From Candidatus Micrarchaeota archaeon (GTDB lineage: Archaea; B1Sed10-29), in contig CAZOFO010000003.1 in assembly GCA_964579265.1 (NCBI GenBank), positions 23,584 through 87,583 on the forward strand: DNA of 64,000 nt, given 5' to 3'. Below, piece by piece: positions 10,260 to 26,447 of this stretch. The notes under the pieces are model-generated. The model was not told the origin of the DNA. It ran no database searches and saw only the letters and a list, made by a program, of their open reading frames with translations. A program made the translations under genes and the position numbers. The stretch's first letter is position 1; each line of letters opens with the position of its first letter.

Positions 10260-10928
10260 TTATTCTATTTGGTTTTCGATCCATTCTTTCAGTGTTTTTC
10301 TGTCTTTATTCTGTTCTTCTGCTTCTAGTAATTTTTTGTATTCTTCTTCCTCGAAATCTTGCGCTTTTTCTTTTATTTCTGAGACATTTTTTTCTGCTAG
10401 TTCTTCGTAATCTGTTTCTTCTTCGCTTTCTTCTGTCTCTTCTTTTTCTTCTTCACTTTCAGTTACTTGTTCATCAGCATCATCGTCTTCTTCTTCGTCC
10501 TCTTCTGCTTCTTCTTCCTCGTCTTTTTCTGGTTCTTCTTCTTTTTCTTCTGGTTCTTCTTCTCCGAATAGTACTGCTAGTTTTTTCTTTCCTTTATCTG
10601 TTACTTTTAGATTTAGTTGTTGCGTTTCTTCTGATACTATTTCTCCTCTCACTGTTTTTCTTTTTCTTTGTCCTGGTTCTTGTGCTCTGTGTCCTGTTCC
10701 TCCTTCTAGAAGAAGCTTTCTTCTTTCCGTTGTTTTTACTCCTCTTTTCATTGGGAATCCTTGTTTGTCGCTTCCTCCTGTTATTCGGAAGCTATGTCCT
10801 TTTAGATCGATTAGGCTTCCTTCTACTTCTTCTCCTATTTTCTTATCGTGTAGTGCTTTTGCTTTTTTGTCTTCTATCTCTTTTTGGTATGTTTTTCCTG
10901 TTTCTGGGTCGGATACTACTATTTGCAT
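10260..10928 (-). CDS. rps6e: 30S ribosomal protein S6e with acidic linker and C-terminal 50-aa accessory domain
   Basis: ITGGSDKQGFPM, RKRKTVRG core (about 120 aa) plus about 100-aa extension. Confidence 0.95.
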   Translation of the reverse strand: MQIVVSDPETGKTYQKEIEDKKAKALHDKKIGEEVEGSLIDLKGHSFRITGGSDKQGFPMKRGVKTTERRKLLLEGGTGHRAQEPGQRKRKTVRGEIVSEETQQLNLKVTDKGKKKLAVLFGEEEPEEKEEEPEKDEEEEAEEDEEEDDDADEQVTESEEEKEETEESEEETDYEELAEKNVSEIKEKAQDFEEEEYKKLLEAEEQNKDRKTLKEWIENQIE

Positions 10929-10986
10929 GTTTTTACACCTCTTGTGATTTTTTGTTCTTTTTGTGTTTTGTTGTTTTAGGTAAAGT

Positions 10987-12723
10987 TTATCTTTTTATTT
11001 TCCTTATTTCTTTTAGTAGTTGCTTGTTTTTGAATCCTTCTCTTTCAAGTTCGTATGTTTCGTCTACTGGTACTTCAGTGTAGATAGTTTCTCCTTCTTC
11101 TATTTGTCTTCCTACAGTGACATCTGTTATTGCTATCGCTGCTTCTCCACCTTGTTCTAGTAGTTTTATTGAGTGTTGATCTTTTTGTATGCTTTTTATT
11201 TCTCCCAGTCTTTCTCCTTCTTTGTTCATTAATGGGTATCCTGGTTTTAGTTTTCCTTGTTGTAGTTTTATTCCTACTATTGCTGGTTTGCTTTTTCTGA
11301 AGGTGTGTTCTGGGAGTATTTTGATTTTTGCTGGGTATACGTATTTTTCGAGTCTTTCTTGTTTTTCTCTTTTTTCTTCTTTTTCTTTCCATTTCTGGTA
11401 TTTTTCTTCTAGTTTATATATTATATTTGATTCGAATATAGGAACGTTTAGCTCTTCAGCTTTTTTCTCTATTTCTTCCGGTATCTTGGTGTTAAATGCG
11501 AATATCGCGCCTAAGTATCTGTCTTTTTCTTTTATGGTTTTTGCTTCCGTTAAGTCTTTTTTTCTCACTTGTCCTATTTCTGCTCTTCTTATTGGTATTT
11601 CTTTTTCTTTGAATAAATCTATTATACCTTCTAGTGATCCTATGGTGTCTGCTCTTATTATTACTCCTTCTCCTTTATTTTTTATAGTGACTTTTTCAAG
11701 CTGTTCTTCTACTTCTTTCTTTTTTTCTTCTGTTTTTTCATTAGCTATTATTACTGGTGAACCTGCTATTGCTTCTTCAAGTCCTGGTGCTGCTATCTTT
11801 ATTCCTTCTGCAGCTTCTACTTTTTTAACTCTTTTAAAGTCTTTTCCTTTTGCTTCTCTCATTTCTTTTAGTTTTTTCGGTTTTAATAGTGCTCTTATCT
11901 TTGTTTCTTTTGCTCCGTTTTTTGTTCCAAATACTATTTTGTCTCCTTTTTCTATTTTTCCTTCGTATATTATGGTGTCTATCGTGGTTCCTAGTCCTTT
12001 GACTTCTTTTACTTCTAGTATGGTTCCTTCTCCTGTTTTTTCTTTTTCTACTTCTAGGTCTTTTTTCATGTATCTTTGTGAAAGTCCTGCGAGGAACATT
12101 AGGAGTTCTGGTATTCCTTCTTTAGTTTCTGCTGATGTTGGGATGATTATTATGGTGTCTTCTGGATTGTCTACTTTATCGAATCTGTTGGCGTTTATTC
12201 CGTATTCTGCTACTTCTCCTATGATATCGTATATCTTGTCTTGTAGTCTATTTTTTACTCTTTCACTCTGTTTTTTGATTGTCTTGGTGAATGGTTGTCC
12301 TTTGTTTGGTGTCCATCCTTGTATTAGATCTACTTTGTTTAGGGCTATTATGAACGGGCATTTGTGTTTTTTGAGTATTTCTAGAGCTTCTTTTGTTTGT
12401 GGTTGGATACCTTGCATTACGTCTATTACTAGTACTGCGAGGTCTGCGGTTTTTCCTCCTCTTTTTCTCAGGGAGGTGAATGCTTGGTGTCCTGGTGTGT
12501 CTATGAATAGGAGTCCTGGTATTTCTAGTTTGTATCCGTATTTTTCTATTATTTCTTTACTTTGTTTTTCTACTGTCTGGGTTGGTATGAAACTTGCTCC
12601 TACGTGTTGTGTTATTTTACCTGGTTCTCCTTCTAGAACTGTGGATCCTCTTATTGAGTCCAGTATTGCTGTTTTTCCATGGTCCACATGCCCTAGTACA
12701 CATATTATCGGTGATCTAATCAT
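10987..12723 (-). CDS. infB: Translation initiation factor aIF5B (IF-2)
   Basis: RSPI..LGHVDHGKT, ITQHVGA, DTPGH, NKVD, ADTIGSLE. Confidence 0.97.
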   Translation of the reverse strand: MIRSPIICVLGHVDHGKTAILDSIRGSTVLEGEPGKITQHVGASFIPTQTVEKQSKEIIEKYGYKLEIPGLLFIDTPGHQAFTSLRKRGGKTADLAVLVIDVMQGIQPQTKEALEILKKHKCPFIIALNKVDLIQGWTPNKGQPFTKTIKKQSERVKNRLQDKIYDIIGEVAEYGINANRFDKVDNPEDTIIIIPTSAETKEGIPELLMFLAGLSQRYMKKDLEVEKEKTGEGTILEVKEVKGLGTTIDTIIYEGKIEKGDKIVFGTKNGAKETKIRALLKPKKLKEMREAKGKDFKRVKKVEAAEGIKIAAPGLEEAIAGSPVIIANEKTEEKKKEVEEQLEKVTIKNKGEGVIIRADTIGSLEGIIDLFKEKEIPIRRAEIGQVRKKDLTEAKTIKEKDRYLGAIFAFNTKIPEEIEKKAEELNVPIFESNIIYKLEEKYQKWKEKEEKREKQERLEKYVYPAKIKILPEHTFRKSKPAIVGIKLQQGKLKPGYPLMNKEGERLGEIKSIQKDQHSIKLLEQGGEAAIAITDVTVGRQIEEGETIYTEVPVDETYELEREGFKNKQLLKEIRKIKR

Positions 12724-12740
12724 TTCTATCACTTTTGTTT

Positions 12741-12802
12741 TATACCTCGTCTAGCAAGGCTATTTAGAAGTTAGCCTCAGTCTGGTTGATCCTTTCCGAG
12801 GT
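12741..12802 (-). ncRNA. Putative structured RNA element with antisense to the 16S rRNA 5' end
   Basis: Outer stem ACCUCG/CGAGGU, inner stem AGGCUA/UAGCCU, internal loop carrying AGGAUCAACCAGA. Confidence 0.4.
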
Positions 12803-12815
12803 TTTTCTTTTTAGG

Positions 12816-13427
12816 TTATTCGTTTTTCTTTTCGAGGTCTTCTATCTTTGGTCCGTCTTGTGGTGCTCTCATTATTTCTTCTTCTGCTCTTTCGTACTCT
12901 TCTTCGTATAGTTCGTCTTCATTGAACCAGATTTTGATTTCTTTTTCTGCATTTTCTTTGTCTGCAGCGTGAATTAGATTTCTTATGGGTCTATTTCTTT
13001 TATTGGCGTATTCGTATGATTCTGTGTGAAAGTCTCCTCTTACTGTTCCTGGTCTGGCTTCTCTTGGTTCTGTTTCTCCTGCTACTTTTCTACCTGCTTC
13101 TGGCGCGTGTGGTCCTTGGAATACTGCTGCTATTATAGGTGTTTTCTTTATGTATTCTCTTAATTGTTTTACTATTATCATTCCGTATTCTTCTGTGTCC
13201 CAGGGAAATGCTGTTCCTTCTGCTTCGAATTGCTTTTTTGCTTTTTCGCCTATTTGTTCTGCCATTGAGTCTGGATAATGTTCTTCTAGTTGTTCTTGAG
13301 TGGCTTTCGTCATTTTCATTCCTATTAATCTGAGTCCTTTTTGTTCAAATCTTTCAATTATTTTTCCTATTATCCCTCTTTTTACTCCGTCTGGTTTTAG
13401 TAGTATGAGGGTTCTGGTGTCTTTCAT
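12816..13427 (-). CDS. ndk: Nucleoside diphosphate kinase
   Basis: KPDGV, PGTVRGDF, NLIHA; start at ATG after AGGTGA RBS. Confidence 0.95.
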   Translation of the reverse strand: MKDTRTLILLKPDGVKRGIIGKIIERFEQKGLRLIGMKMTKATQEQLEEHYPDSMAEQIGEKAKKQFEAEGTAFPWDTEEYGMIIVKQLREYIKKTPIIAAVFQGPHAPEAGRKVAGETEPREARPGTVRGDFHTESYEYANKRNRPIRNLIHAADKENAEKEIKIWFNEDELYEEEYERAEEEIMRAPQDGPKIEDLEKKNE

Positions 13428-13441
13428 TTGCTCACCTTCTT

Positions 13442-13600
13442 TTATTTCTTGGTCCATTCTGTCTTTTTTGGATCTCTTTCTAGTTTTCTATGGTTCTTTT
13501 CGCATTTGCTCGAGCAGTAGGGGAATCTTTCTCCGTCCTGTTTGATGTATATTTTTCCTTTTCCTTGTGGTATTTCTTCTCCGCAGAAGCTGCAGTCCAT
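13442..13600 (-). CDS. rpl24e: 50S ribosomal protein L24e
   Basis: Not in ORF track (52 aa); read manually: MDCSFCGEEIPQGKG...YCSSKCEKN...PKKTEWT. Confidence 0.94.
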   Translation of the reverse strand: MDCSFCGEEIPQGKGKIYIKQDGERFPYCSSKCEKNHRKLERDPKKTEWTKK

Positions 13601-13615
13601 TTTTGTTCACCTTTT

Positions 13616-13822
13616 TTATTGTACTTGTATTTTTCTTGCTTCTTCAGTGTCTCTTAACAGCAGTATGTCTCCTTCTTGTACTGGTCCTTTTACGTTTCTT
13701 CTTTTGATCCTGTTTTTGTCTCTTCCTTCTAGTATTTTTGCCATTACTTGGTTTAGTTCTCCATGTACTCCTGTTTTTCCTATTACTTCTACTACTTTTG
13801 CTTTTACGGCTTTATCTGCCAT
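13616..13822 (-). CDS. rps28e: 30S ribosomal protein S28e
   Basis: GKTG-x-HGE, RNVKGPV..GDIL. Confidence 0.96.
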
Positions 13823-13841
13823 TTTTAATCACGCTTTGTTT

Positions 13842-14216
13842 TTATTCTTCTTTTTTTAGTTCTTTTACTTTTTCTTTTATTTTTTCAATTTCTTTTTTCG
13901 CTTCGCCTGAATCTACTAGTGCTATTGAAGTTGATCCTACGTTTAAGCCGCTTGCTAGTCCCAGTTCTTTTTGTGAAGGAACGTAGATGTACGGTATGTC
14001 TTTTTCTTCTGATAGTATTGGTAGGTGTGCTACTATCTCTGGTGGTTTTATGTCTGTTGCTATCACTACTAGTTCTGCTTTTTTTCTCTCTAGAGCTTTT
14101 GTGACTTCGTTTACTCCTTGTTTTATTTTTCCAGTGTCTCTTGCTTTCTCTATCGCTTCGTAGGTCTTTTTTGATAGTTCTTCTGGTATTTCAAATTCTT
14201 GGAAGGGTGCTGTCAT
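13842..14216 (-). CDS. rpl7ae: 50S ribosomal protein L7Ae
   Basis: GVNEVTKALER, DIKPPEIVAHLP, ELGLASGL. Confidence 0.96.
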   Translation of the reverse strand: MTAPFQEFEIPEELSKKTYEAIEKARDTGKIKQGVNEVTKALERKKAELVVIATDIKPPEIVAHLPILSEEKDIPYIYVPSQKELGLASGLNVGSTSIALVDSGEAKKEIEKIKEKVKELKKEE

Positions 14217-14224
14217 TCTTGCTC

Positions 14225-14243
14225 ACCTCGCTTTGTCATCGGT
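14225..14243 (-). promoter_or_regulatory. K-turn/K-loop overlapping the rpl7ae Shine-Dalgarno sequence (putative L7Ae autoregulatory site)
   Basis: Transcript ACC-GAU-GA-CAAAGC-GA-GGU; the 3' strand is the GAGGUGA RBS. Confidence 0.65.
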
Positions 14244-14452
14244 TTTTCTTTTTTGAGAATTATGTTCGATGCTCTTTGTTTTATCCGTGTATATTATTTT
14301 TCGGTGCCGGGGTATAAAAATGTTTCAGAGAGATCCATTTGTAAGAGGTTTGAATTTAAAAAGTACTGGATATAGGGGTGAATTTTTAAAAATCTAATTG
14401 AAAGACCAAAAAAATTCTTTAACTTTAATAGATTTTTTCAAGATTTTATTTT

Positions 14453-16153
14453 TTATTTATGAGCGTAACTGGCTTTTATCTCTTCTTCTGTTTTCTCATT
14501 TATTTTCACGAATCCGTATCTTTCGAACTGGATTACTTCTCCTTTTTTCACTTTTTCCAGTTTTTCTTCACCGTATCCTCTCTCGGTTTCTCCCGAGGTA
14601 AGGGTAACTTCTACCGGTAGGTAGTTCTCCGTTGCCCATTGTAGTATATCAGTTATATCTTCCTCCATCTCAGCCGTGACAAATTCAGCTTCAGTATATG
14701 AGTCGTTCTTTCCATTTACCTGGATAGTGAATGCTCCTTTGAGCCGTACTTTGTCTCCTTTTTCTTTTTTCTCTAGATCTTCCTCTGGTAGGTAGAAAAT
14801 TCTTTCTCCTTCTTTGAATTTATATTTCTTTCTTCCCATTTCTTTTTCCGGGTGCATTGGTACTTCCACTTCCATTTCTGGTATGTTCTCAACTCTAACT
14901 TTCTTTGGTTCCGGTACGAAGTAGAATCTTCGTGCTTCAGAATCTATTATTTCTCTATTTTCCGCATATAGTTTATTCAATGGTACTGTGGAGCTAGATT
15001 CACTTATACCTTGGGATAATATGAATTTTTTTATTGCTTCGGGTTTTATTCCTCTTTTTCTAAGTGATCTTATGCTCCATGTTCTTGGATCTTCCCATCC
15101 TGTGTATTCTCCTTTCTTTATCTTTTCTGCTGATCCTGATGAACTTATTTTCACTTTTTCCAGGTTCATTCTTCCTGTGTGTATGAATTCAACATTGCTG
15201 TAATCTATGTCTAGGCAATCCCATATGTATTTCTCCATCTTAGTTTCCATTGCTAGGTCTTTTCCTCTTAGTATATGCGTCATCCCAAGAAGATGATCGT
15301 CCACTGCCCATGAGAACTCTAGCATGGGCCATACTCTATATTTTTTTCCTACTCTAGGGTGTTCTCTTTCACTTATCCTTAACAGTACTCTGTCTCTGAA
15401 TGCTGGGTCTTTATGCTGCATATCGGTCTTTATTCTAAGTACTGCTTCTCCTTCTTCGTATTTTCCTTCCAGCATTTTTTTGAATTCTTCATGGTTTTTT
15501 TCTACTGAACGCGATCTATGATTGCATTCTTCACCTTCTTCTCTATTTTTTCTCAGTTCTTTAGCTGTGCAGTTGCAGACGTATGCTTTTCCTGTGTCTA
15601 TTATCTTTTCAGCCCATTCGTAGTACTTCTCCATTCTCTCTGATTTCAGGTAGACTTCGTCCGTCTTCAAACCGAGCCATTCTATATCTTCTTTTATCAT
15701 CTCGTAAGCTTTTGGATCTATCTGTTTTTCTTCTGATCCTATCGTGTCGTCTATCACGAGGTAGAATTCTCCATCGTATTTTTCTTTTGTGTATTCGTGG
15801 TTTGGAATTGCTTGCCTGCAGTGTCCAAGGTGTAGAGGTCCTGATGGATAGGGAGCAAACCTCATCTTGATTTTGGAGGTTTTACCTTGTAATTCAGGAA
15901 GTTTATGTTCGTCTTCTTCTTCCTCTTCTTCAAGTGCTTCTGGATCTATCTCCAGCAGCTTTCTTTCCTGTTGTTCTCTAGTCATCTGGTTTACTTCTTC
16001 AACTACTTCATTTGCTTTTTTACCTAGTTCCCCCATGTCTTTTTTTAGTTCTGGTTTTTCTCCTATTGCTTTGTTCATCACTGGTTTTACTTTGGCTTCT
16101 CCTTTGTGTTCCCAGGCGTTTTTCAAAGCATGTTTTAGTAGAAGATATCTCAT
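14453..16153 (-). CDS. gltX: Glutamate--tRNA ligase (archaeal type)
   Basis: RFAPYPSGPLHLGH, VDDH..GMTHILRGKD, GW-x-DPR, QFERYGF. Confidence 0.96.
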   Translation of the reverse strand: MRYLLLKHALKNAWEHKGEAKVKPVMNKAIGEKPELKKDMGELGKKANEVVEEVNQMTREQQERKLLEIDPEALEEEEEEDEHKLPELQGKTSKIKMRFAPYPSGPLHLGHCRQAIPNHEYTKEKYDGEFYLVIDDTIGSEEKQIDPKAYEMIKEDIEWLGLKTDEVYLKSERMEKYYEWAEKIIDTGKAYVCNCTAKELRKNREEGEECNHRSRSVEKNHEEFKKMLEGKYEEGEAVLRIKTDMQHKDPAFRDRVLLRISEREHPRVGKKYRVWPMLEFSWAVDDHLLGMTHILRGKDLAMETKMEKYIWDCLDIDYSNVEFIHTGRMNLEKVKISSSGSAEKIKKGEYTGWEDPRTWSIRSLRKRGIKPEAIKKFILSQGISESSSTVPLNKLYAENREIIDSEARRFYFVPEPKKVRVENIPEMEVEVPMHPEKEMGRKKYKFKEGERIFYLPEEDLEKKEKGDKVRLKGAFTIQVNGKNDSYTEAEFVTAEMEEDITDILQWATENYLPVEVTLTSGETERGYGEEKLEKVKKGEVIQFERYGFVKINEKTEEEIKASYAHK

Positions 16154-16315
16154 TTTCTATACCTCTTTTTGTATCCTTAGAGTTCTAACTTGTTTTATTT
16201 ATTGAGTTGCCCTTTATACTTCTTTCTTATCCTTTCGATGATTAACGTGGGTAGGGTTTATAATCCTCTGTGTAGAATAATTTAGATGAATGTTTTCGAT
16301 AGGGGGTTCTTTAAA

Positions 16316-17641
16316 ATGTCACTGAGAAGTTTTCTGAAGAGGCAAAGAGAGAGGGAGAATTTGAATAAGGTTTCTAGACAGGTTAATCCTGACTTTGAAG
16401 CAAGTTCAATAGCTTTTGAAGATCAATCAAAACCGGTTGTATTCGAGAATGTGGAAGGTTATCCTGATATCAAGATGGTTTCTAATATTGTGTCCTCTAG
16501 AGATATGATAGCGGATTCATTGGGTGTTGATAAAGGAGATATACTTTTTGAATTATCAAATGCTTACGATTCTCTAGAAAAATGCGTTGAATCTGATAAA
16601 TCTATTAAGAGTTATAATAATTTTGGTAAACCTAACCTGATAGATCACTTGCCTATCCTTAAGTATTATAGTAAAAAAGAAGATGGGGAAGTAAAGGATC
16701 CTAGGTACCTTGCTTCCTGTATGGTTATAGCTAAGGATCCTGAAGACGGTTCTCAGAATCTATCTTTTCATAGGTTAATGTATCAAGGAGATAACAAGTT
16801 CACAATAAGGATAGTTCCACGTCACTTATATGAAATAAATGAAAAGAAAGAAGGAGATTTAGAAGTAGCTATAATAAGAGGAGTAGATCCTAGAATAGAG
16901 ATAGCTGGAGCTACATCAGGTTCTCCTGATATGGATGAACTAGAGTATGCTAATGCTTTAATGGATCAAGATCTCGAGTTGATTGATCTAGACGGTTTAA
17001 AAATTCCTGCAGATTCAGAAGTTGTTATGAAAGCAAGAATAACTCAAGAAAAAGACGTAGAAGGTCCCTTTGTCGACTTATCTGAAACTTGGGATAAAGA
17101 AAGACAACAACCTGTGCTGGAAGTAGATAATTTATACATGAAAGAAAATCCTTATGTTAGGTTCCTCGTACCAGGAAAAAACGAACACAAACACTTGATG
17201 GGTCTTCCACAGGAACCTAGGATATATAATAAAGTGAGAGAAACAGTCCCTACAGTTCAAAACGTAATAATATCTAAAGGAGGATGCTCTTGGCTTCATG
17301 GTGTAGTAAAAATAAAAAAGAGGAATGAAGGTGATGCTAAAAACGCTGGAATGGCGGCACTAGCTGGTCATCCTTCCATGAAGAGAGTGGTTATCGTGGA
17401 TGAAGATATCGATCCTACAGATCCACAAGAAGTTGAATGGTCAATAGCGACTAGAATGCAGCCTCACAAAGACATAAACTTTATAAAAAGAGCAAAAGGA
17501 TCTTCTTTAGATCCTTCTCAAGATTATAAAAATAGATTAATGACGAAATGGATAATTGACGCTACTATACCTCACGACAAGGACGAAGACTTTTCCAAAG
17601 CAAAAATACCTCAAGTAGAAGATAAAGATACGGAGGAATAA
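16316..17641 (+). CDS. UbiD-family decarboxylase, probable trans-anhydromevalonate 5-phosphate decarboxylase
   Basis: SFHR, EGPFVD, GGCSWLH, VDEDID..D..EVEW-x-IATR, GSSLDPS, IDAT; adjacent to PMDh and IPK. Confidence 0.85.
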   Translation: MSLRSFLKRQRERENLNKVSRQVNPDFEASSIAFEDQSKPVVFENVEGYPDIKMVSNIVSSRDMIADSLGVDKGDILFELSNAYDSLEKCVESDKSIKSYNNFGKPNLIDHLPILKYYSKKEDGEVKDPRYLASCMVIAKDPEDGSQNLSFHRLMYQGDNKFTIRIVPRHLYEINEKKEGDLEVAIIRGVDPRIEIAGATSGSPDMDELEYANALMDQDLELIDLDGLKIPADSEVVMKARITQEKDVEGPFVDLSETWDKERQQPVLEVDNLYMKENPYVRFLVPGKNEHKHLMGLPQEPRIYNKVRETVPTVQNVIISKGGCSWLHGVVKIKKRNEGDAKNAGMAALAGHPSMKRVVIVDEDIDPTDPQEVEWSIATRMQPHKDINFIKRAKGSSLDPSQDYKNRLMTKWIIDATIPHDKDEDFSKAKIPQVEDKDTEE

Positions 17642-17642
17642 C

Positions 17643-18821
17643 ATGCATCTAACAAAAGAAGAAGAAAAAATGCTTGAATCTGGATCAAAACCGGTTAGAA
17701 AAGCAATGGAGCTACTGGTAAGACTAGGAGATATTTACGGAGCTGAAGAAATGATAGAAGTTAACTCAGCTCAAGCATCAGGCGTATCATATAAATCAAT
17801 AGGAGACCCAGGTATAGAGTTCCTAGAAGGATTTGCAGAAGAAGGAGCAGAAGTGAAAATACCTACCTTTGCAAATCCAGCTGGAATGGATCTAGAAAGA
17901 TGGAAAGAAATGGACGTGTCTGAAGAATTTGCTGAAAAACAAAAAAGGATAATCAAAGCAATGAAGGAAATGGGTATAATTACCACGACATCCTGTACTC
18001 CTTATCTATTTGGGAACCTGCCTAGAAAAAACGAACATATAGCATGGGCGGAATCCTCTGCAGTTTCATTCGCTAACTCTGTAATAGGAGCTAAAACAAA
18101 TAGAGAAGGAGGTCCATCAGCACTATCAGCAGCTATAACAGGAAGAACTCCTAATTACGGACTACATTTAGAAAAAAATAGAAAACCAACTCACCTTATA
18201 GAGGTTAAAACTGATCTAGAAACTATTTCAGATTTCGGAGCCCTTGGATCTTGGGTTGGAAGAGAAGTAGAGGATGGAAAACCCTATTTCAAAGGAATTA
18301 AAAATGCTAAGACAGATGAATTAAAATCTCTAGGAGCAGCAATGGCAGCATCAGGAGCAGTAGCACTATACTTCGTGGGAGGGATAACTACTGATAGAGA
18401 AAAACCTGAAGACCTGGAAAAAATCGAATTTACAGAAAAAGAAAAAAAAGAAGAATACCAAGAACTAAACCAAGCTCAAGATCCTGATCTAATCGTATTC
18501 GGATGTCCACACGCATCAATAGAAGAAATAAAAGAAATATCTGAATCACTGGACGGAGAAACATTGGAAAAAGACCTCTGGGTATGCACAAATAGAGCTG
18601 TAAAATCCTGGGCCGATAGAATGGGTTACACCGAAAAAATAGAGGAATCAGGTGGAAAAGTACTCTGCGATACCTGTAATGTAGTATGTCCTCTGGAAGA
18701 TATGGAATATGAGAACACAGGTACAAACTCAGGTAAAGCAGCTAACTACTTACCTGGTTTCTGTGACCAAGAGATAATTTTCTCAGATAGAAAAAAATTG
18801 ATAAAAAAGGCGATAAAATGA
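17643..18821 (+). CDS. Phosphomevalonate dehydratase large subunit (aconitase X type II)
   Basis: SGVSYKSIGD, SCTPY, AWAESSAV..ANS, GCPH, DTC motifs. Confidence 0.9.
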   Translation: MHLTKEEEKMLESGSKPVRKAMELLVRLGDIYGAEEMIEVNSAQASGVSYKSIGDPGIEFLEGFAEEGAEVKIPTFANPAGMDLERWKEMDVSEEFAEKQKRIIKAMKEMGIITTTSCTPYLFGNLPRKNEHIAWAESSAVSFANSVIGAKTNREGGPSALSAAITGRTPNYGLHLEKNRKPTHLIEVKTDLETISDFGALGSWVGREVEDGKPYFKGIKNAKTDELKSLGAAMAASGAVALYFVGGITTDREKPEDLEKIEFTEKEKKEEYQELNQAQDPDLIVFGCPHASIEEIKEISESLDGETLEKDLWVCTNRAVKSWADRMGYTEKIEESGGKVLCDTCNVVCPLEDMEYENTGTNSGKAANYLPGFCDQEIIFSDRKKLIKKAIK

Positions 18822-19225
18822 AAATCAAAGGAAGATCAATATCAAAAGGTGAAGCAAAAGGAGAAGTAATGATATCTAAGGAACCAATAGGGTTCTATGG
18901 AGCTGTAAATCCAGAAACAGGTGAATTTATAGAAGAGGGACATGAATTAGAGGGAAAAAATATCTCTGGAAAAATACTAGTATTCCCAAAAGGAAAAGGA
19001 TCTACAGTAGGATCTTATGTCCTCTACGGTTTGGCAAAAAATAACAAAGCACCGAAAGCTATAATAAACAAAGAAACAGAAACAATCGTTGCAACAGGAT
19101 GTATACTTGGTGAAATACCTTGTGTGGATAAACTAGAAAAAGATCCTTTAAAAAATCTAAGCGAAGGAGAAAAATTAAAGGTAAATGGGGACCAAGGAAC
19201 TATTGAAAAAATGAATGAAGAATAG
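18818..19225 (+). CDS. Phosphomevalonate dehydratase small subunit (aconitase X swivel domain, DUF126)
   Basis: GKILVFPKGKGSTVGS; ATGA overlap with the large subunit. Confidence 0.9.
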   Translation: MKIKGRSISKGEAKGEVMISKEPIGFYGAVNPETGEFIEEGHELEGKNISGKILVFPKGKGSTVGSYVLYGLAKNNKAPKAIINKETETIVATGCILGEIPCVDKLEKDPLKNLSEGEKLKVNGDQGTIEKMNEE

Positions 19226-19236
19226 AGGTATTTTCT

Positions 19237-20019
19237 ATGGATAATTTAAAACTGCTTAAAGTAGGTGGATCAATAATCACTGAAAGAAAAGCAGAAAAAC
19301 CTACTCCAAGAGAAAAAGAAATGGAAAGAGTTGCAAAAGAGATATCAAAATCTTACTCTGAATCTATGAAAATGGTTTTAATACATGGGGCAGGTAGTTA
19401 CGGTCATCCTATAGTTAAGAGAACAGGTATATCTAATGGAATGTCTAATAGAAAAGATAAAGTTAATTTCGCAGAAACCCAAAGACTTCAAAATAAATTA
19501 AATTCATTATTTACCAAAAAACTAATAGAACAAGGCCTACCAGCTTTTCCCTTCCAGGCTTCGGCTTCAGCAGTGAGAAAAAATGAATTAAAAAGAATGG
19601 AAGTTGATCTAATTAAAAAACTCTTGGAAGAAAATGTTATACCTGTACTTTACGGTGTACCTGCTTACGATGAAGATAAAGGTTGTTCAATTCTTTCGGG
19701 AGATGAGATAATGCCTTTCTTAGCTAAGGAATTAGATGCAAACCTAATGCTCCATGGTACAGATGTAGAAGGAGTTTATACTTCTGATCCTTCTGAAGAT
19801 GATTCTGCAGAATTATTAAAGAATATAGGTTCTTTTGAAGAAGCTAAAAATTATTTAGGAGGAAGTAAACATACTGATGTGACTGGTGGGATGTTGAATA
19901 AAATAGAAAAAGCATTTGAATTAAATGTGGATAGTATTATCTTCAATGCTTCTACCAAAGGTAATATTAAGAAAGTTCTGAATGGTGAAGAAATTGGGAC
20001 CTATATAAATGCTTATTAA
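19237..20019 (+). CDS. ipk: Isopentenyl phosphate kinase
   Basis: KVGGSIIT, HGAGSYGH, SGDEI, DVTGGM. Confidence 0.92.
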   Translation: MDNLKLLKVGGSIITERKAEKPTPREKEMERVAKEISKSYSESMKMVLIHGAGSYGHPIVKRTGISNGMSNRKDKVNFAETQRLQNKLNSLFTKKLIEQGLPAFPFQASASAVRKNELKRMEVDLIKKLLEENVIPVLYGVPAYDEDKGCSILSGDEIMPFLAKELDANLMLHGTDVEGVYTSDPSEDDSAELLKNIGSFEEAKNYLGGSKHTDVTGGMLNKIEKAFELNVDSIIFNASTKGNIKKVLNGEEIGTYINAY

Positions 20020-21021
20020 TTATCTTGAAATTGATCCATTTACTCCCATTTTTGTAATAATAGTTTTTCCTCCTTCTTTTTCTATTGCTCGGGCTATTCC
20101 TTCCTGTTTCTCATTTGATGTAAGTGCGATCATTATGCCTCCTTTTCCTCCTCCGGATAGTTTTGCTCCGTAGGCTCCGTTCTCTCTTGCAGTTTGAATT
20201 AGTCTTTCTAGTTTTGGGTGGCTTACTCCTAATGTCTTCAGTTTCTCCTGGTTTTTGTTCATCAGTTCCCCTAGTTCCTCAGGTTTATTTTCTTCAACTG
20301 AACTTGCTCCTTTCTCGACCAATTCTTCTATTTCATTGAATATTCTGTTATAGCTTTCCGGGTGCTTTTCCCATCCTTTTTTTACATAAGGGACTGTTTC
20401 ACTTGTTTCTGATTTTATCTGTGTATCTCCTATTACTATTTGAAGAGGTTTTGGATCTTTATTTTCGTATTCTATACCTATTTCTTTTTCTTCTTTCTTC
20501 CTAACTGTATTGTATCCTCCTAATGAGCTTGAAATTATTTCACTCCCCGATGCTGCCCCTCCGTGTATCCTTACTTGTATAGGGTATATTGTTTTGAAGT
20601 ATTCTTCTGCATTCATCTCTGTATCAGTTACTTTATTTAAGGTTCTTAGCAGTGATGAGGTTACTGCGGTAGAACTGCTCATTCCTCCTGATTCTTTAGG
20701 TATTTCTGTATCTATTTTTATCTGTAGACCTGTTTCTAAGTTTTTATATTCGTTATAGATAGATAAAAGATCGATTAAAGGGTCTAATTCATGTGTATAA
20801 TCTTCTGGAGAATTATATTCAACTTTTTTTATTTTCTCTAGTTCTAAGTTTTTTTCTCCGTATCCTTTGGATTTTATATTTATTTTTTTATCTTTTCTTT
20901 TTTCGATTTTTGTCTCTGTATATTTTCCTATTGATGCTATCAATGCTTTTCTTCCATAGACTACGCTATGTTCTCCCAGTAGAAATATATTTCCTGGTGC
21001 TTTTGCTTTTTTTCTTTTCAT
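20020..21021 (-). CDS. mvk: Mevalonate kinase (GHMP family, divergent active site)
   Basis: GEHSVVYG, GELMNKNQ, GAKLSGGGKGG; canonical position after rps2. Confidence 0.8.
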   Translation of the reverse strand: MKRKKAKAPGNIFLLGEHSVVYGRKALIASIGKYTETKIEKRKDKKINIKSKGYGEKNLELEKIKKVEYNSPEDYTHELDPLIDLLSIYNEYKNLETGLQIKIDTEIPKESGGMSSSTAVTSSLLRTLNKVTDTEMNAEEYFKTIYPIQVRIHGGAASGSEIISSSLGGYNTVRKKEEKEIGIEYENKDPKPLQIVIGDTQIKSETSETVPYVKKGWEKHPESYNRIFNEIEELVEKGASSVEENKPEELGELMNKNQEKLKTLGVSHPKLERLIQTARENGAYGAKLSGGGKGGIMIALTSNEKQEGIARAIEKEGGKTIITKMGVNGSISR

Positions 21022-21032
21022 ATTTGATCTTT

Positions 21033-21650
21033 CTATTTGAATTGGAAATCTTCTATCTCTTCGTCAAATTCATCGTTTTCTTTTATTATCTCTTTGTTTT
21101 TCAGTGTTTCTCTTGCTATTAGGTAGTAGGCTAGTGCCAGAGATTGTTTTCCTTTATTGTTTATAGGTAGAATCAAGTCTATGTTGTTCACCATGTTTGA
21201 AGTATCACATAGGCTTATTACTGGTGTTTTGGATATTCTTGCTTCTTCTATTGCTTGTTGGTCTACTGATGGGTCCGCTGTTATTACTAGTTCTGGTTCC
21301 AGGAATTTGTCTCCTCTAGGGTTTGTTAGTAGTCCTGGTGGGTATCTTCCGGTTTCTGAGTTTGCTCCTATTTTGTCAGCCATTTTTTCAGCTGGTTTTT
21401 GAGCGTATTTTCTCCCTGCTACTACTAGTATCTTGTTTGGGTCTTTTTCTGCTATCATGTTCGCTGCTTTTTTAATTCTTTCATCTATTTTTGCTATGTT
21501 AAGTAACCATAATCCATCATCTCTACATTTATAAGTGAAAGGATCCATTTGTCCTGTTTTGTATTTCGATCCTATGTGTGCTCCTGTCTCTAGGTATTTT
21601 TCTACGGATACTAATGGGTTTTCTATTTTTCCTTGTTCGTTTTTTTCCAT
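21033..21650 (-). CDS. rps2: 30S ribosomal protein S2 (uS2)
   Basis: YLETGAHIG, GRYPPGLLTNP, NNKGKQSL. Confidence 0.96.
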   Translation of the reverse strand: MEKNEQGKIENPLVSVEKYLETGAHIGSKYKTGQMDPFTYKCRDDGLWLLNIAKIDERIKKAANMIAEKDPNKILVVAGRKYAQKPAEKMADKIGANSETGRYPPGLLTNPRGDKFLEPELVITADPSVDQQAIEEARISKTPVISLCDTSNMVNNIDLILPINNKGKQSLALAYYLIARETLKNKEIIKENDEFDEEIEDFQFK

Positions 21651-21701
21651 TTTTGGTTCACCTGTATTTTTTGTTTATTCGTTAGTTTTAATATTTTCTT
21701 T

Positions 21702-22937
21702 TTATCTGCTTATGTAGTGTTCTATTCTGATCAATTCATTTAGTTTTGCTACTCTTTCTCCTCCTGCTATCCCTGTTTTTATTATTGGTATGTTTTCTGC
21801 TAGTGCTATGTGAGCTATTGTTGAGTCGTTTGTTTCACCTGATCTATGGGATATTACAGGGGTGTATCCAATTTCTTTTGCTTTTTTTATTGTTTTTCTT
21901 GTTTCGGTTATTGTGCCTATTTGGTTTGGTTTTATAAGGATGGAGTTGCAGGCTTTTTTTTCTATCCCTTTTTCTAATCTTTCTATTTTGGTTGTGAATA
22001 GATCGTCTCCGCATATTGTCTTTTCTGGGTTTTTTTCTGTTAATTCAGCGTGTTTTTCGTAGTCTTCTTCTTGTAGAGGGTCTTCTATATATTCTAAGTC
22101 GTATTTTTCTATTAGTTTTTGGATGTATTCTAATTGTTCTTCCGGTGTTCTTTCTTTATCTTGGTATTGATACTTTCCTTTTCTATAGAATTCAGATGCT
22201 GCTACGTCTATTCCTAGTTTTATATCTATTTCAGGGTTTAAACCATTTTCTTTTTCTTTAATTTGTTTTAATGTTTTTTCTCTTGCTTCTTTTATCGTTT
22301 CTAGAGATTTTTCATTATTTAGAGTAGTGGTATATCCATTTTCTAGGTCTTTACCTGCTGTGAAGTGTTTATCTTTCTTTTTTAGTATTTTTTTCACGTT
22401 CTTTTGCATTTTTACATTTACTATGCATGATTCTTTGAATGTGTCTGTTTTTATCGGTATTGATAGGAATTCTTGTATTTCAGGGCCTTTTCCTGCGTGT
22501 TGTCCTCCTCCTATGAGTTTTCCTAGTGGTTGTGGTAGTATGTATTCATTTCTTTCTTCTAGGTGGAAGTATAGTGGTTTTTCTTCTGTATCTGCTGCTG
22601 CTTTTGCTATTGCTGTTGATAGAGAGAGGGTTATTGCTGCTCCGTAGTTTTCTAGATTTTCAGTTCCGTCTATTTCTTTTATTTTTTCATCTATTTCTTC
22701 TTGGTTTTCTGAGTTCATCCCTATTATTGACGGGTATAGCTGTCTTTCTGCTTTTTTAATTAGTTCTTTTGGTTTTTCTGGTGTTTGTTTTACTTCGTGT
22801 TTTCCTGCTGATGTTCCTGTGGGGGTGCTTGCTCTTCCAAATCCTGTTGAGGTATAAACATCTGTTTCTATTGTTTTTTCTCCTTTTGAATTCAGTATTA
22901 TCTTTGAATCAATTTCTTTTATATCTGATTCTTTCAT
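21702..22937 (-). CDS. eno: Enolase
   Basis: IQEF, DVAASEF, IEDP, GDDL, KPNQIG, SHRSGET, KLNELIRIE. Confidence 0.95.
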   Translation of the reverse strand: MKESDIKEIDSKIILNSKGEKTIETDVYTSTGFGRASTPTGTSAGKHEVKQTPEKPKELIKKAERQLYPSIIGMNSENQEEIDEKIKEIDGTENLENYGAAITLSLSTAIAKAAADTEEKPLYFHLEERNEYILPQPLGKLIGGGQHAGKGPEIQEFLSIPIKTDTFKESCIVNVKMQKNVKKILKKKDKHFTAGKDLENGYTTTLNNEKSLETIKEAREKTLKQIKEKENGLNPEIDIKLGIDVAASEFYRKGKYQYQDKERTPEEQLEYIQKLIEKYDLEYIEDPLQEEDYEKHAELTEKNPEKTICGDDLFTTKIERLEKGIEKKACNSILIKPNQIGTITETRKTIKKAKEIGYTPVISHRSGETNDSTIAHIALAENIPIIKTGIAGGERVAKLNELIRIEHYISR

Positions 22938-22984
22938 TTTGGTTTCTCCTATTATGTTTTTCTATTTTCTCGAGACTTAGGTAA

Positions 22985-23092
22985 TGGGGCCAGCGAGATT
23001 TTCCTCAAAAGAGTCCTGTGGACTCCTGTTGATCTTGAACTCACGTCACCACCGCCCCGGGGTGGTAGGATGCCAGGCTACCCTATGGCCCC
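22985..23092 (-). tRNA. tRNA-Pro(GGG) with 35-nt T-loop intron (22999-23033)
   Basis: GGGGCCA/TGGCCCC acceptor, CCACC-CCGGGGC-GGTGG anticodon arm, T-loop interrupted by a BHB-like hairpin insert. Confidence 0.88.
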
Positions 23093-23286
23093 ATTCGCGA
23101 GTATTTGTTTATTTCATCTATTATGTCTACTTGGGCTGTGAACATTCTTCTACAGCAGTATCTTTCCAATTTTAATTCGTCCATTACTTTTTCTGGGTTT
23201 TCTCCGTTTTCTATCTTTTCTTTGTATTCTTCCCAGAGGTGTCCTATTGGTTTTCCACAACTGAAGCATCTTACGGGTATCATCAT
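23083..23286 (-). CDS. rpoN: RNA polymerase subunit N (Rpo10)
   Basis: IPVRCFSCGK, RYCCRRM. Confidence 0.97.
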   Translation of the reverse strand: MMIPVRCFSCGKPIGHLWEEYKEKIENGENPEKVMDELKLERYCCRRMFTAQVDIIDEINKYSRMGP

Positions 23287-23311
23287 TTTTGTTCACCTTT
23301 TTTGGGGCACT

Positions 23312-23728
23312 TTATCTGTATGATTTGATTGGTTTTGCTCTTGCTCCTTTTCTCATTGGTTTCTTTGGCTCTTTTCTTCTGTAATCATCTACTAGTATTG
23401 ATCTGTCGTATTCTCTGTATTTTTCTTCCAGTTCTTCTGAGCCACTCCATTCTACTAGTGCTTTCCCTATTGAGGTTCTAGTGGCTGCTGCTTGTCCTGC
23501 TTTTCCTCCGCCTTTCACATTTGTTTTTATTTTTATCTTTTCAAGTTTCTCTTTTCCCAGAATTTTCTCAGCTATTCTTATTGGTTCTTTTATCATTCTT
23601 CTGTATAATTCAGGAGTGTATAAGTCTATTGGTTGATTATTAATTTTTATTGTTCCTTTTCCTTCCTTTATGGTTGTTCTAGCTACTGCTTTTTTCTTTT
23701 TTCCTTTTTTGAATACATGTTTAGCCAT
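23312..23728 (-). CDS. rps9: 30S ribosomal protein S9 (uS9)
   Basis: GKKKKAVAR, VKGGG..GQA, EPKK..GARA..KSYR. Confidence 0.96.
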   Translation of the reverse strand: MAKHVFKKGKKKKAVARTTIKEGKGTIKINNQPIDLYTPELYRRMIKEPIRIAEKILGKEKLEKIKIKTNVKGGGKAGQAAATRTSIGKALVEWSGSEELEEKYREYDRSILVDDYRRKEPKKPMRKGARAKPIKSYR

Positions 23729-23741
23729 TTTTTCATCCTCT

Positions 23742-24158
23742 TTATTGTTTTAATCCTAATTCTTCACATAGTTCTTTTATTGTGATATGTGGTTTATCTT
23801 TTTTTATTTTTATATTATCTTCTGATTTTTCTTCTAGTCCTTCTGGAACTCCCAAGTATGCTTTTATTTTTTTCTTAGCCTTTTTACCTCTTTGTTTTTT
23901 CATTGGAAGCATTTTCTCTGTTGCTCTTTTTAGGAATAGATCGGGTCTTCTTGATATTGTTTTTGGACTTTTTCTTGGGTTTCCTAAGTCTCTTAGATTG
24001 AATTTGTCTCTGTATTTTTGCACTATATTCTGTTTTTTTCCCACTATTATTGCTTTTTCAGAGTTTATTATTCTGACTTCTTTTCCTTTTTGAGCTTCTT
24101 CGGATGCTTTTGATGCTATTCTTCCGAGTGGTTTTCCTTCTCCGTTTATTATGTACAT
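23742..24158 (-). CDS. rpl13: 50S ribosomal protein L13 (uL13)
   Basis: LGRIAS, INSEKA, RPD, MLP. Confidence 0.93.
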   Translation of the reverse strand: MYIINGEGKPLGRIASKASEEAQKGKEVRIINSEKAIIVGKKQNIVQKYRDKFNLRDLGNPRKSPKTISRRPDLFLKRATEKMLPMKKQRGKKAKKKIKAYLGVPEGLEEKSEDNIKIKKDKPHITIKELCEELGLKQ

Positions 24159-24163
24159 TTTGT

Positions 24164-24523
24164 TCACTTTATTATCTTCATTTTTTCTTTTGATGGTTTT
24201 TTATCTTTCATTTCTTCTATTGTGAAGGCTTTTGATTTTGTTTTGTTTATTTTTTCATTGGCTTTGTTTGAATATGTTAATGCTGCTATTTCTATTTTTT
24301 TATCTTTATTTATTTCTCCGTATCCAAGTACTTTTCCAGGTATTAATATTATTTCTCCGTCTTCCGCTTCTTTGTCTATTTTTCTTAGGTTTACTTCAGC
24401 TCTTTTTCTATTTGGTTTACCTAGTTCTTTTCCTAGGTCTTTCCAAATTCCTTTTTCTTTTTCCAGAGTTCTTATTAGACTTTTTAGTCTTTTGTTCTGT
24501 ATTCTGTTTTTCCTTTTACTCAT
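24164..24523 (-). CDS. rpl18e: 50S ribosomal protein L18e
   Basis: VNLRKI, PGKVLG-x-G. Confidence 0.93.
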   Translation of the reverse strand: MSKRKNRIQNKRLKSLIRTLEKEKGIWKDLGKELGKPNRKRAEVNLRKIDKEAEDGEIILIPGKVLGYGEINKDKKIEIAALTYSNKANEKINKTKSKAFTIEEMKDKKPSKEKMKIIK

Positions 24524-24550
24524 TTTAATCATTTTTTATTGTTGTGGGGA

Positions 24551-24669
24551 TGCGGGGAACGGGATGTTCACCCAAAGAAGCTAATAGCTTCTTCTTGGTT
24601 TTGAACCCGTGAAGGCACTAAGCCACATGGCCCTCAACCATGCCCTTTTGACCGCTCAGGCATCCCCGC
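24551..24669 (-). tRNA. tRNA-Leu(GAG) with 35-nt T-loop intron (24565-24599)
   Basis: GCGGGGA/TCCCCGC acceptor, CATGG-TTGAGGG-CCATG anticodon arm, long variable arm, BHB intron at 59/60. Confidence 0.92.
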
Positions 24670-25278
24670 TTATTCCTGTTCTTCTATTTTTTCTTGTAGT
24701 TCTTCTGCTTTTTCCTTGAGGATTTTTAATGATTGTTCTAGTAGTTCTTCTGGTTCTTTTTTTACGTATGATTCTACAGTGAATTTGAATTCGTCTTCTG
24801 GATCTTCTTCTGATTCTTTTTCTACATCTGTTTTATAGGTTGCTAGGCAGGGTTTGTGTCTGGCGTGTTCTTTCCCTAATCCGAGTTCTATTGTTCCTTC
24901 TAGCTCTATTTCTTGGTTTTCTTCTAGTTTTATTATTGGTGTTTTTGGGTATATTACTTCTATTTTTGGATCTTCTATTTCCATTTGTTCTGCGTGTACT
25001 ATCCCTGGGTCCTTTGCTGTTAGCGTCATCATTGTTGATGGTGATTCTTCGGTTAATTCGTAGTCTTCTGGGGTGGATATTGGTGTCATTCCTATTCTGT
25101 GTGCTATGTATTCATCGAACATTGGTGATGTATTTTCGAAGAAGCTTACTTTCGTGATTGCTAGGGTAGGTATTTCTCTTTGCATTGTTCTCCTTATTGC
25201 ATTGGCTGTTGGTGGGTTTGAGTCTTTTAGAGTGAATTCTAGCTTTTCTTCTTTTTTTTCTAGGTCTTCTATTTTCAT
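24670..25278 (-). CDS. rpoD: RNA polymerase subunit D (Rpo3), short form
   Basis: ANAIRR, NTS.MFDEYIAHRIG, GKEHAR, FTVES; lacks the Cys-containing domain 3. Confidence 0.95.
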   Translation of the reverse strand: MKIEDLEKKEEKLEFTLKDSNPPTANAIRRTMQREIPTLAITKVSFFENTSPMFDEYIAHRIGMTPISTPEDYELTEESPSTMMTLTAKDPGIVHAEQMEIEDPKIEVIYPKTPIIKLEENQEIELEGTIELGLGKEHARHKPCLATYKTDVEKESEEDPEDEFKFTVESYVKKEPEELLEQSLKILKEKAEELQEKIEEQE

Positions 25279-25300
25279 TTTTATCTTCCTCTATCTCGTG

Positions 25301-25687
25301 TTATACTCTTCTTCCTCTTTTTCCGCCTGGTTTTTTGGTTCCATCGTGTGGGATTGGTGTGACGTCTTCTATTTTTCCTACGTTTAATCTGCTTCTTGAT
25401 AGTGCTCTTATTGCTGCCTGTGCTCCTGGTCCTGGCATTTTTGATTTGTGTCCTCCGGGTGCTCTAATTTTTATATGTATTCCTTTTAATCCTTTTTTAG
25501 ATGCTTCTTTTGCTGCTCTTTTTGCTGCTTTCATTGCGGTGTGTGGTTCTCCTTTTTTTCTATCTGCTTTTGCTATCATTCCTCCGCTACATTTTGATAG
25601 TGTTTCGGAGCCTGTTGAATCTGTTATTGTTATTATGGTGTTGTTGTTTGATGAATGTACGTGAGCTATTCCCCATTTCTTTTTCAT
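25301..25687 (-). CDS. rps11: 30S ribosomal protein S11 (uS11)
   Basis: NNTII-x-[31 protein letters not shown]. Confidence 0.97.
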
Positions 25688-25706
25688 TTTTTACACCTGT
25701 TCTATT

Positions 25707-26447
25707 TTAGTCTTCTTTGTTTATCTGTCTTTTTATCCATTTTTTAAGTGTTTTTCTGTCTTTGTTTTGTTTTTCTGTTTCTAGTAGTTCTTCGTATTGT
25801 TTTTTATTGAAGTTTTGTGATTTTTCTTTTATTTCTGAAATGTTTTTCTTGGATAGTTTTTCGTAGTCTTTTTCTTCTGCTTCTTCTTTTGTTTCTTTTT
25901 TCGGTTTTGTTCTTTTTTGTTTCATTGTTTTTTGTTCTCTGGTTTTCTTTTGTGGTTTTTTACTAGCTTCTGCTTGTTCTATTGGTCTTCTGTACCAGTC
26001 TATTGTGTTTTCTTCTTCTTTTGGGATTATTATTCCTGGTTTTGTGGTTTTTCTGCCGTTGATTTCTATGTGTCCATGAGTTATAAGTTGTCTTGATTGT
26101 TTAGGTGTTCTTCCGTATCCTTTTCTCCATGCTAGAGTTTGTAGTCTTCTTTCCAGGTAGTCTTTAGTAGTCATTGATAAGACGTCGTCTATTCCTCCGT
26201 TTTCTTTTATGAATCCTTGTCTTCTTAATTTCTTGAGGAAGTTTTCTTTCTTTCTTTTTACTTCTTCTTCTCTCTGTCCGATTATTTGTCTTGCTATTTT
26301 TCTATATTTTCTTACTTGTGATTGAGCTTTCCATACTTCTTTCTTGTTTTTCAATCCGTAGTTCTTTTTTAGTTCTTTTTCTTTTGATAAGTTCTGCCAG
26401 TTCCAAGGGTGTCTTGGTTTTTGGTATTTCTTGCTTTTTTTCCTCAT
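25707..26447 (-). CDS. rps4: 30S ribosomal protein S4 (uS4) with basic linker and C-terminal 50-aa accessory domain
   Basis: YGLKNKKEVW, LERRLQT, SRQLITHGHI, then about 90-aa extension. Confidence 0.95.
   Translation of the reverse strand: MRKKSKKYQKPRHPWNWQNLSKEKELKKNYGLKNKKEVWKAQSQVRKYRKIARQIIGQREEEVKRKKENFLKKLRRQGFIKENGGIDDVLSMTTKDYLERRLQTLAWRKGYGRTPKQSRQLITHGHIEINGRKTTKPGIIIPKEEENTIDWYRRPIEQAEASKKPQKKTREQKTMKQKRTKPKKETKEEAEEKDYEKLSKKNISEIKEKSQNFNKKQYEELLETEKQNKDRKTLKKWIKRQINKED

Follow-up and report, generated by a model that had tools for sequence, protein, structure and literature searches.

Why should two different proteins of the small ribosomal subunit end in the same domain? The question is posed by a 64,000-nucleotide stretch of a Candidatus Micrarchaeota genome (GenBank assembly GCA_964579265.1, contig CAZOFO010000003.1, positions 23,584 to 87,583), here termed the window, in which the genes for eS6 and uS4 both close with a 50-residue module. 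The two copies lie on the minus strand at window positions 10263-10412 and 25719-25868, and align without a gap, with 32 of 50 amino acids and 116 of 150 nucleotides identical. Our answer, drawn from sequence comparison, is a tentative one: the module may be a portable tether, predicted to bind nucleic acid through a conserved patch formed by K14 and K36-R38-K39-T40 (module numbering). Carried on the flexible tails of unrelated proteins, it would tether its host to the chromosome, mRNA or rRNA, with these five residues and the start of the last helix as the predicted contact. A nucleic-acid ligand is suggested by the retention of the patch in an acidic domain, by the occurrence of tandem arrays and by the number of hosts that are nucleic-acid machines; moreover, the module trades places with a zinc finger, and its relatives in putative granule proteins hold a position like that of the tail of the lipid-droplet protein MLDS. 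Because the module is gained and lost freely, is patchy across phyla and can be swapped for another fold, its ligand would be generic and present in any cell, which speaks against a private, co-evolving partner. Genomes are denoted below as G000 (that of the window), G001-G003 (three genus-mates), and G004 and G005 (members of the same family).

Fold and conservation of the module

The AlphaFold model of the module is a compact domain with a predicted local distance difference test (pLDDT) score of 90, and helices spanning residues 2-5, 10-19, 22-34 and 39-49. Across 255 copies, E32 and R38, which correspond to the invariant glutamate and arginine that precede the last helix, five residues apart, in the labelled DUF8129 repeats, are present in 100%; lysine or arginine occupies positions 14, 36, 38 and 39 in 96, 95, 100 and 85%, respectively, T40 is retained in 93%, and W44 and Y2 are also conserved, all of which are figures that lean high, as the copies are profile hits gathered in part through a word index built on the same residues. 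A preliminary description of this DNA had proposed a small helical module recruited to small-subunit proteins and related to modules of halophiles, and this is borne out. Fold searches of the PDB yielded only generic matches: Foldseek returned nothing at E 0.001, and the best solutions from VIA-align (Z up to 5.8) are generic helical hairpins with no HeH domain in the top 50, a result that excludes nothing. Sequence matches in the PDB (myosin light chain, GST, and polyubiquitin via summed 5.7-bit repeats) were dismissed as chance, and Pfam Fis1_TPR_C, matched by 9/35 copies with a best E of 0.013, falls below its cut-off.

Hosts and distribution

A scan of 1.84 billion representative proteins with a profile built from the two window copies gave 103 hits, 102 of which bear the module in a total of 128 copies, the other (P0107) being a false positive. 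There are 56 C-terminal and 33 N-terminal copies (89 at a terminus), and 16 proteins carry tandem copies, in arrays that reach five. A word-indexed search yielded 531 longer proteins with the module among 7993 candidates scored. Ribosomal proteins account for 21 of the 30 representatives to which a Pfam family could be assigned. Over all searches, the ribosomal hosts comprise eS24, eL31, uS3, uL24, eS6, uS4 and bacterial bL31; elsewhere, the module is found on Rpo1C, ParA, MinD, topoisomerase I, the Complex I 30 kDa subunit, MCP, a KaiC-like ATPase, PhaE, a MoxR-like ATPase, and one- and two-pass membrane proteins. The bL31 protein (P0086) is of bacterial type, and its name assigns it to a Candidatus Paceibacteria bacterium; its archaeal-type terminal module represents recruitment to a bacterial ribosome.

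In a sample of the phylum Nanohalarchaeota, 69/70 genomes have the module, with 1-11 matches each; in the Hadarchaeota sample, the count is 7/66. In a tree of 37 rows, copies cluster by lineage rather than by host (3 changes against a shuffled mean of 15), albeit with few columns, 20 open forks, and with G002 eS6, G041 eS24 and ParA, G042 uS3 and Rpo1C, and L142 absent, these six rows having been merged as duplicate ORFs with other loci. A single supported group (97/92) unites the copies from the window's genus, which sit on eS6, uS4 and two membrane proteins; the G004 copy falls outside it. Diverged viral copies occur at L142:2734-3147 and in genes 66 and 102 of HSTV-2 (L145), and on a Halobaculum plasmid (L158:3480-4742) two adjacent genes with the module lie just upstream of annotated head-tail genes. 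Searches of plasmids and phages by tblastn with single modules found nothing, and the PHROG matches are all to families of unknown function. A match in G014 (E 0.005) lay inside an RNA polymerase subunit and disappeared with better profiles.

Two further records may be mentioned here. An archaeal eS24 with the module (L032:2204-2644) stands on a record titled Colwellia polaris, which is probably a mis-binned contig. Additionally, seven entries (P0005, P0014, P0017, P0039, P0087, P0099 and L063) make up a coiled-coil family with a terminal segment that we read as winged-helix-like and one to four modules; this family is a candidate scaffold, should the module dock on a protein.

Within the class, the module is present in 5/31 genomes, namely G000, its three genus-mates and G004, and in none of the 25 genomes beyond the family, among which 10 reach a completeness of 90% or more. 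All three genus-mates carry both fusions. In G002 and G003 both are found in the genome (the eS6 gene of G002 is split across two contigs and is intact on L092); G001 has the eS6 fusion in its genome and the uS4 fusion on a metagenome contig, L091, whose uS4 core is identical at 428/429 nucleotides to the truncated uS4 of G001. As the eS6 and uS4 fusions recur in these relatives, they are no assembly artefact. The eS6 tail beyond the core measures 73-101 residues in the five family genomes examined and 7-49 in 21 others, and uS4 tails outside the family run to 20-100 residues of low complexity that bear neither the module nor the zinc finger described below; this survey covers 26/28 matches for each protein, truncated genes having been left out. 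A third type of tail decoration in the class is provided by short Pro/Thr/Lys repeats on the uS4 of G018, G024, G026, G023, G022 and G028 (L187, L200, L201, L203, L206 and L207, respectively).

Exchange with a C2H2 zinc finger

The module shares its slots with a single C2H2 finger. With both tags masked, 17 of 43 open reading frames (ORFs) bearing only the finger have a homologous host that bears the helical module instead, among loci that are not a random sample; these belong to five host families, namely eS6, uS4, uS3, a two-pass membrane protein and a B-repeat membrane protein. Both tags occur together in two ORFs, and one gene enters these counts twice. G004 has the module on uS4 (across an assembly N-gap) and the finger on eS6, whereas G005 lacks the module, and has the finger on uS4 and a bare eS6 tail. 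Similarly, uS3 ends in the finger in 4/5 genomes of a sister family (L118/G017, L119/G013, L121/G006 and L122/G016), and in the helical module in Nanohalarchaeota. A DsbA-like pair (L129 and L064) was rejected as an ortholog swap, its similarity being too weak (E 0.003), and is not among the five families.

The finger is found in 12/31 genomes of the class and 65/70 Nanohalarchaeota, including on Rpo4, a PRC-barrel protein and ATP synthase D. Its motif, C-x2-C...F...H-x3-5-H, is invariant in 7/7 aligned copies; against PF00096, the L118 copy scores 28.6 (cut-off 25.2) and the L087 copy 20.8, and those of L078 and L083 are not reported at E 1e-4. In G000 there are six profile matches to single fingers (five by pattern) on unrelated proteins, all outside the window, at C2:50151-50234, C2:3621-3701, C2:51607-51681, C4:41130-41213, C14:8520-8600 and C29:2091-2174. 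By eye, the copies on C4 and C29 share codons 2-18 exactly, which suggests the same copy-paste process as for the helical module.

The two genes of the window

The eS6 gene (10260..10928, minus strand) encodes 222 residues, comprising, from translation and profile scans, a core (residues 1-121; 10566..10928; PF01092, E 8.8e-44), a Glu/Asp-rich linker (residues 122-172; 10413..10565) that is predicted to be disordered from its charge and from pLDDT values below 50 across residues 124-182, and the first module copy (residues 173-222; 10263..10412), a predicted four-helix domain with a net charge of -9. The full-length model that supplied these linker values is shallow (six sequences) and poor (pLDDT 58, with the module as one helix), and was used for linker disorder only. 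The conserved core of this copy (E32, N35-K36-D37-R38-K39-T40-L41-K42-x-W44) lies at 10281..10319. The uS4 gene (25707..26447, minus strand) encodes 246 residues, with a core at residues 1-154 (25986..26447; profile match 2-154; TIGR01018, E 2.9e-51), a Lys-rich linker at about residues 155-193 (25869..25985), and the second copy at residues 194-243 (25719..25868; net charge +6), whose conserved core, E32, N35-K42 and W44 as before, lies at 25737..25775. The 40 residues that precede the module have net charges of -26 in eS6 and +7 in uS4. Both proteins score above curated cut-offs (PF01092 and NF003294 for eS6; TIGR01018 and NF003139 for uS4).

As to the duplication itself, every count in the preliminary description was reproduced, the PF01092 and TIGR01018 matches confirm its host identities, and its placement of both tails outside the ribosomal cores agrees with the solved archaeal eS6 chains listed, which are 125-151 residues long. 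Among the six-frame ORFs of the genome (761 kb, 91% complete), just these two sites score, with every profile tried, the next-best ORF having an E of 0.11-0.7; the similarity is, therefore, far above chance. No RNA polymerase subunit or membrane protein bearing the module was found in this 91% complete genome. Its eL31 (C2:36953-37474) has a long acidic N-terminal extension with neither tag. Presumably, the uS4 gene sits in a uS13-uS4-uS11-Rpo3 cluster, its neighbours being named from their translations; on the same footing, we take 16286-21021 of the window to be a cluster resembling a modified archaeal mevalonate pathway (UbiD-like decarboxylase, two aconitase-X subunits, isopentenyl phosphate kinase and mevalonate kinase). 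The acidic tails, and the lineages that share the module, suggest that the organism may be salt-adapted.

Selection and gene conversion

The module has dN/dS values of 0.07-0.37 in 12/12 ortholog pairs, compared with 0.16-0.35 for the eS6 core, and is, therefore, under purifying selection and functional. Within single genomes, the paralogs share identical tracts of 94 nucleotides in G001 (codon permutation p 5e-5) and 44 nucleotides in G003 (p 0.004), whereas those in G000 and G002 (18 and 21 nucleotides), and in all 24 non-paralog pairs (none at p < 0.05), are not significant; after correction for all 28 pairs tested, only the G001 tract remains so. The G001 uS4 copy derives from the metagenome contig, and three more database entries have the same or a near-identical C-terminal module. 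When two fixed trees were compared, the host-gene tree was rejected for codons 16-50 (p-AU 0.0035) and the genome tree for codons 1-15 (p 0.023), with a breakpoint at codon 15/16 that was picked after seeing the data; the 3' part rejects the host-gene tree at 8/8 breakpoints (p-AU 0.0009-0.007), the 5' result holds at 3/8, and for the whole module neither tree is rejected (p 0.065). Hence, in the genus-mates, the 3' two-thirds of the copies follow the genome and not the host gene, and we infer that these copies have been homogenized by gene conversion; the pair in the window is the least homogenized. Probably, a 3' cassette is converted between genes whose tails are encoded by A/G-rich DNA, and this accounts for the spread of the copies as well as for their homogenization.

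Alternative explanations

The preliminary description had placed the charge differences between the two copies at the centre of its reading, in which the two copies, acidic on eS6 and basic on uS4, pair as a dedicated heterodimer and so clamp together two regions of the 30S subunit; we now regard this as highly improbable. The copies differ at 18 residues, nine of which are charge reversals (7 E>K, 2 K>E); in the window genome, the opposed net charges of modules and linkers would suit a clamp, as would linkers probably long enough for contact. However, the eS6/uS4 net charges are -9/+6 in G000, -6/-2 in G001 (uS4 from L091), -12/0 in G002 and +1/+5 in G003, and are thus opposite in sign in just one genome of four; residues 16-49 are identical between the G001 paralogs, and in G004 one copy was found (on uS4), with a C2H2 finger on eS6. 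Nor are the swaps specific to a paralog: eight of the nine are single GAA/AAA transitions at positions that vary in the family, and the conserved positions are identical in both copies. The window uS4 module shows 10 reversals among 21 differences from its own ortholog, and against the three orthologs the reversals number 10, 6 and 7 for this copy and 1, 1 and 3 for the eS6 copy; given this concentration, one copy in one species has drifted basic, beside a basic linker, and the E/K swaps are likely to be surface drift. Two observations count against this reading of the swaps: the uS4 copy is the less acidic in 4/4 genomes, and the module has accumulated reversals far more often than the eS6 core, where they make up 0-1 of 14-31 differences, as would be expected of a solvent-exposed surface. 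Complex prediction for the two window copies (a 127-row alignment each) twice scored 0.00, which is no answer and was counted neither way. The preliminary description had also staked the clamp on the fusions recurring in close relatives, and they are present in 3/3 genus-mates, and on the module not being a widespread one of known, unrelated function; it has proved to be widespread, without a known function.

Three further explanations compete with a nucleic-acid tether. The module could dock its hosts on a conserved protein hub (a scaffold, division protein, chaperonin or protease), so that ribosomes, RNA polymerase and membrane proteins come together in one place; a docking tag was among the options of the preliminary description, and we consider this reading unlikely. 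The nearest solved shapes are the helical-hairpin stacks of interaction scaffolds, at Z scores of only up to 5.8, MinD/ParA, MCP and single-pass membrane proteins are among the hosts, conservation extends to W44 and Y2, and an archaeal zinc-finger domain, of a different finger type, can bind FtsZ1, according to a preprint (bioRxiv 10.64898/2026.07.16.738847); yet a partner surface would have to be conserved in all of the patchily distributed phyla, in the organism with the tagged bL31 and in the hosts of viruses, and be recognized by two unrelated folds. We would give equal prospects to a ligand-free cap, that is, a stable, soluble end that keeps a long charged tail from being proteolysed or from aggregating at high salt, and that was spread by gene conversion as harmless and useful. 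Any small fold, C2H2 included, could serve in this way; the module always stands beside a long charged linker, whose charge its own tracks weakly (rho 0.23, p 0.003, n = 171 single-module proteins), and is confined to lineages with acidic tails. The retention of surface Lys/Thr positions against an acidic background is difficult to reconcile with a cap, as are arrays of up to five copies, which suggest avidity, and the many long uS4 tails in the class, and the eS6 tail of G005, that are left uncapped. Distinctly unlikely, in our estimation, is the self-association of any copies; it would cross-link 30S subunits, in polysomes or dormant dimers, and in genomes with further tagged hosts would join ribosomes to RNA polymerase and to membrane anchors. 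Conversion within genomes keeps the copies alike, as a homotypic code would favour, and one Nanohalarchaeota genome has the module on both subunits, Rpo1C and membrane proteins; the window genome, at 91% complete, has no copy on the latter two, and a C2H2 finger on one of two proteins would break a homotypic link.

The nucleic-acid tether faces difficulties of its own. Its main weakness is that the patch is incomplete in more distant relatives: halovirus and provirus copies retain mainly E32, R38 and T40, and actinobacterial repeats have Asp at the position of K39. In addition, the conservation figures lean high for the reason given above, the module has a median net charge of -8, and E32-R38 may be a structural salt bridge only. 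Many hosts, MCP, Complex I and DsbA-like proteins among them, have no evident need for DNA binding. The module is dispensable, since G005 has neither it nor any tag on eS6, and it is missing from all 25 class genomes outside the family. With respect to the tag swaps, the eS6 and uS4 rows were fetched because of the present finding (those for uS3, and for the two-pass and B-repeat membrane proteins, were not), two promiscuous tags could share tails merely because long, low-complexity tails recombine easily, and the finger presumably lacks the usual base-reading residues of the recognition code, and may itself bind protein.

If the module is, nonetheless, a tether, the 40-50 residue linkers of eS6 and uS4 would provide each 30S subunit with two distant anchors that reach to the nucleoid or mRNA; in a very small cell, ribosomes would thereby stay bound to the nucleoid or to transcripts. 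By extension, one may imagine an address-tag system of very small archaea, a more speculative proposal that we think doubtful, in which gene conversion places two unrelated folds, the helical domain and the C2H2 finger, on the tails of proteins as different as those of ribosomes, RNA polymerase, ParA/MinD, ATPase subunits and membrane proteins. Such tags would tie these machines to the chromosome, couple transcription to translation and allow the cell's few ribosomes to be inherited with the DNA, the helical tag having moved between phyla, and into a candidate phyla radiation (CPR) bacterium and viruses.

Significance

Full-text literature searches, with subscription papers outside their scope, found no paper describing the module or on DUF8129, and no account of a tag role on ribosomes, polymerase and membrane proteins, of the exchange with C2H2, or of conversion between two ribosomal genes. 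The domain lies near a catalogued family of unknown function (DUF8129), and these three aspects are apparently undescribed. What appeared to be a curiosity of one genome is thus an apparently undescribed and near-universal feature of Nanohalarchaeota (69/70) that is common to several other lineages, and gene conversion is seen to operate between the tails of two essential genes that encode distinct ribosomal proteins. The clamp falls, and the reading that replaces it is broader and directly testable; DUF8129 gains a testable function, and a domain of 6 kDa is cheap to assay. Were the tether model true, it would furnish a mechanism for archaeal transcription-translation coupling and ribosome partitioning; the identity of the archaeal coupling factor is described as an open question (PMC8116511).

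Relation to known systems

The closest catalogued relative is DUF8129 (PF26450), to which the module appears to be related as a subfamily, without being filed as a member. Alignment with hhalign to the repeats of 53 PF26450-labelled actinobacterial proteins gives a probability of 95.7% (E 1e-8, 43 columns), and against these repeats the two copies of the window reach 23.7 and 22.4 bits, where 3500 shuffles give at most 12.8. The module profile matches 53/53 of the labelled proteins, with reciprocal scores of 4.8-24.2 bits for 35 copies. The label itself is found on none of the listed archaeal homologs (0 of 120 + 11), and a local Pfam scan, whose Pfam copy may predate the model, did not return PF26450 for the 35 copies. 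Structure-atlas clusters for two look-ups include DUF8129 (13% and 56% of members; scores 0.88 and 0.83, respectively), and are treated as leads only. The archaeal branch differs from DUF8129 in adding K14, K39 and W44, and in residing on ribosomal proteins and RNA polymerase. Both window proteins also match positions of about 103-196 of NF033649 (LipDrop_Rv1109c; E 7e-4), an actinobacterial lipid droplet-associated family known here by its NCBIfam name only; this match is, however, confined to the C-terminal half, leaves the first 100 profile positions unmatched, and reaches 19.6 bits against a cut-off of 110. Separately, Haloferax volcanii, a tractable host, has matches to phrog_1983 and NF033649, below or without a cut-off, and may have its own DUF8129-like copy.

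In its placement, the module resembles the small nucleic-acid tethers HeH, SAP and Rho_N, and the Rho_N or helix-hairpin-helix tails of bacterial bL21 and uS2: all are small, promiscuous terminal domains on flexible linkers, ribosomal proteins being among the hosts, and the motif of the first and last helices is similar by eye. In the module model, however, a helix takes up the centre, which in HeH is an extension; the Pfam hits of the 35 copies include no HeH or SAP family at E up to 1, and PF07498 (Rho_N) is found in 0/11 genomes, G000 included, with the control positive in 9/14. The C2H2 finger (PF00096) occupies the same slots in five host families and is likewise copied between genes, although it is unrelated to the module in sequence and fold.

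A functional parallel may be drawn with granule proteins that possess a DNA-binding tail, such as PhaF and PhaM. The actinobacterial proteins that close with PF26450-labelled repeats have an N-terminal part rich in Gln and Ala, which we read as phasin-like; the DNA-binding tail of MLDS, a lipid-droplet protein of Rhodococcus, occupies the equivalent terminal place (PMC5504291). By analogy, a targeting domain with a terminal tether would link a large particle to the chromosome in both cases, a droplet in the one and, putatively, a ribosome in the other; the tether of MLDS and the granule proteins is a Lys-rich PAKKA repeat and not a folded domain, and the likeness is claimed as one of arrangement rather than of homology.

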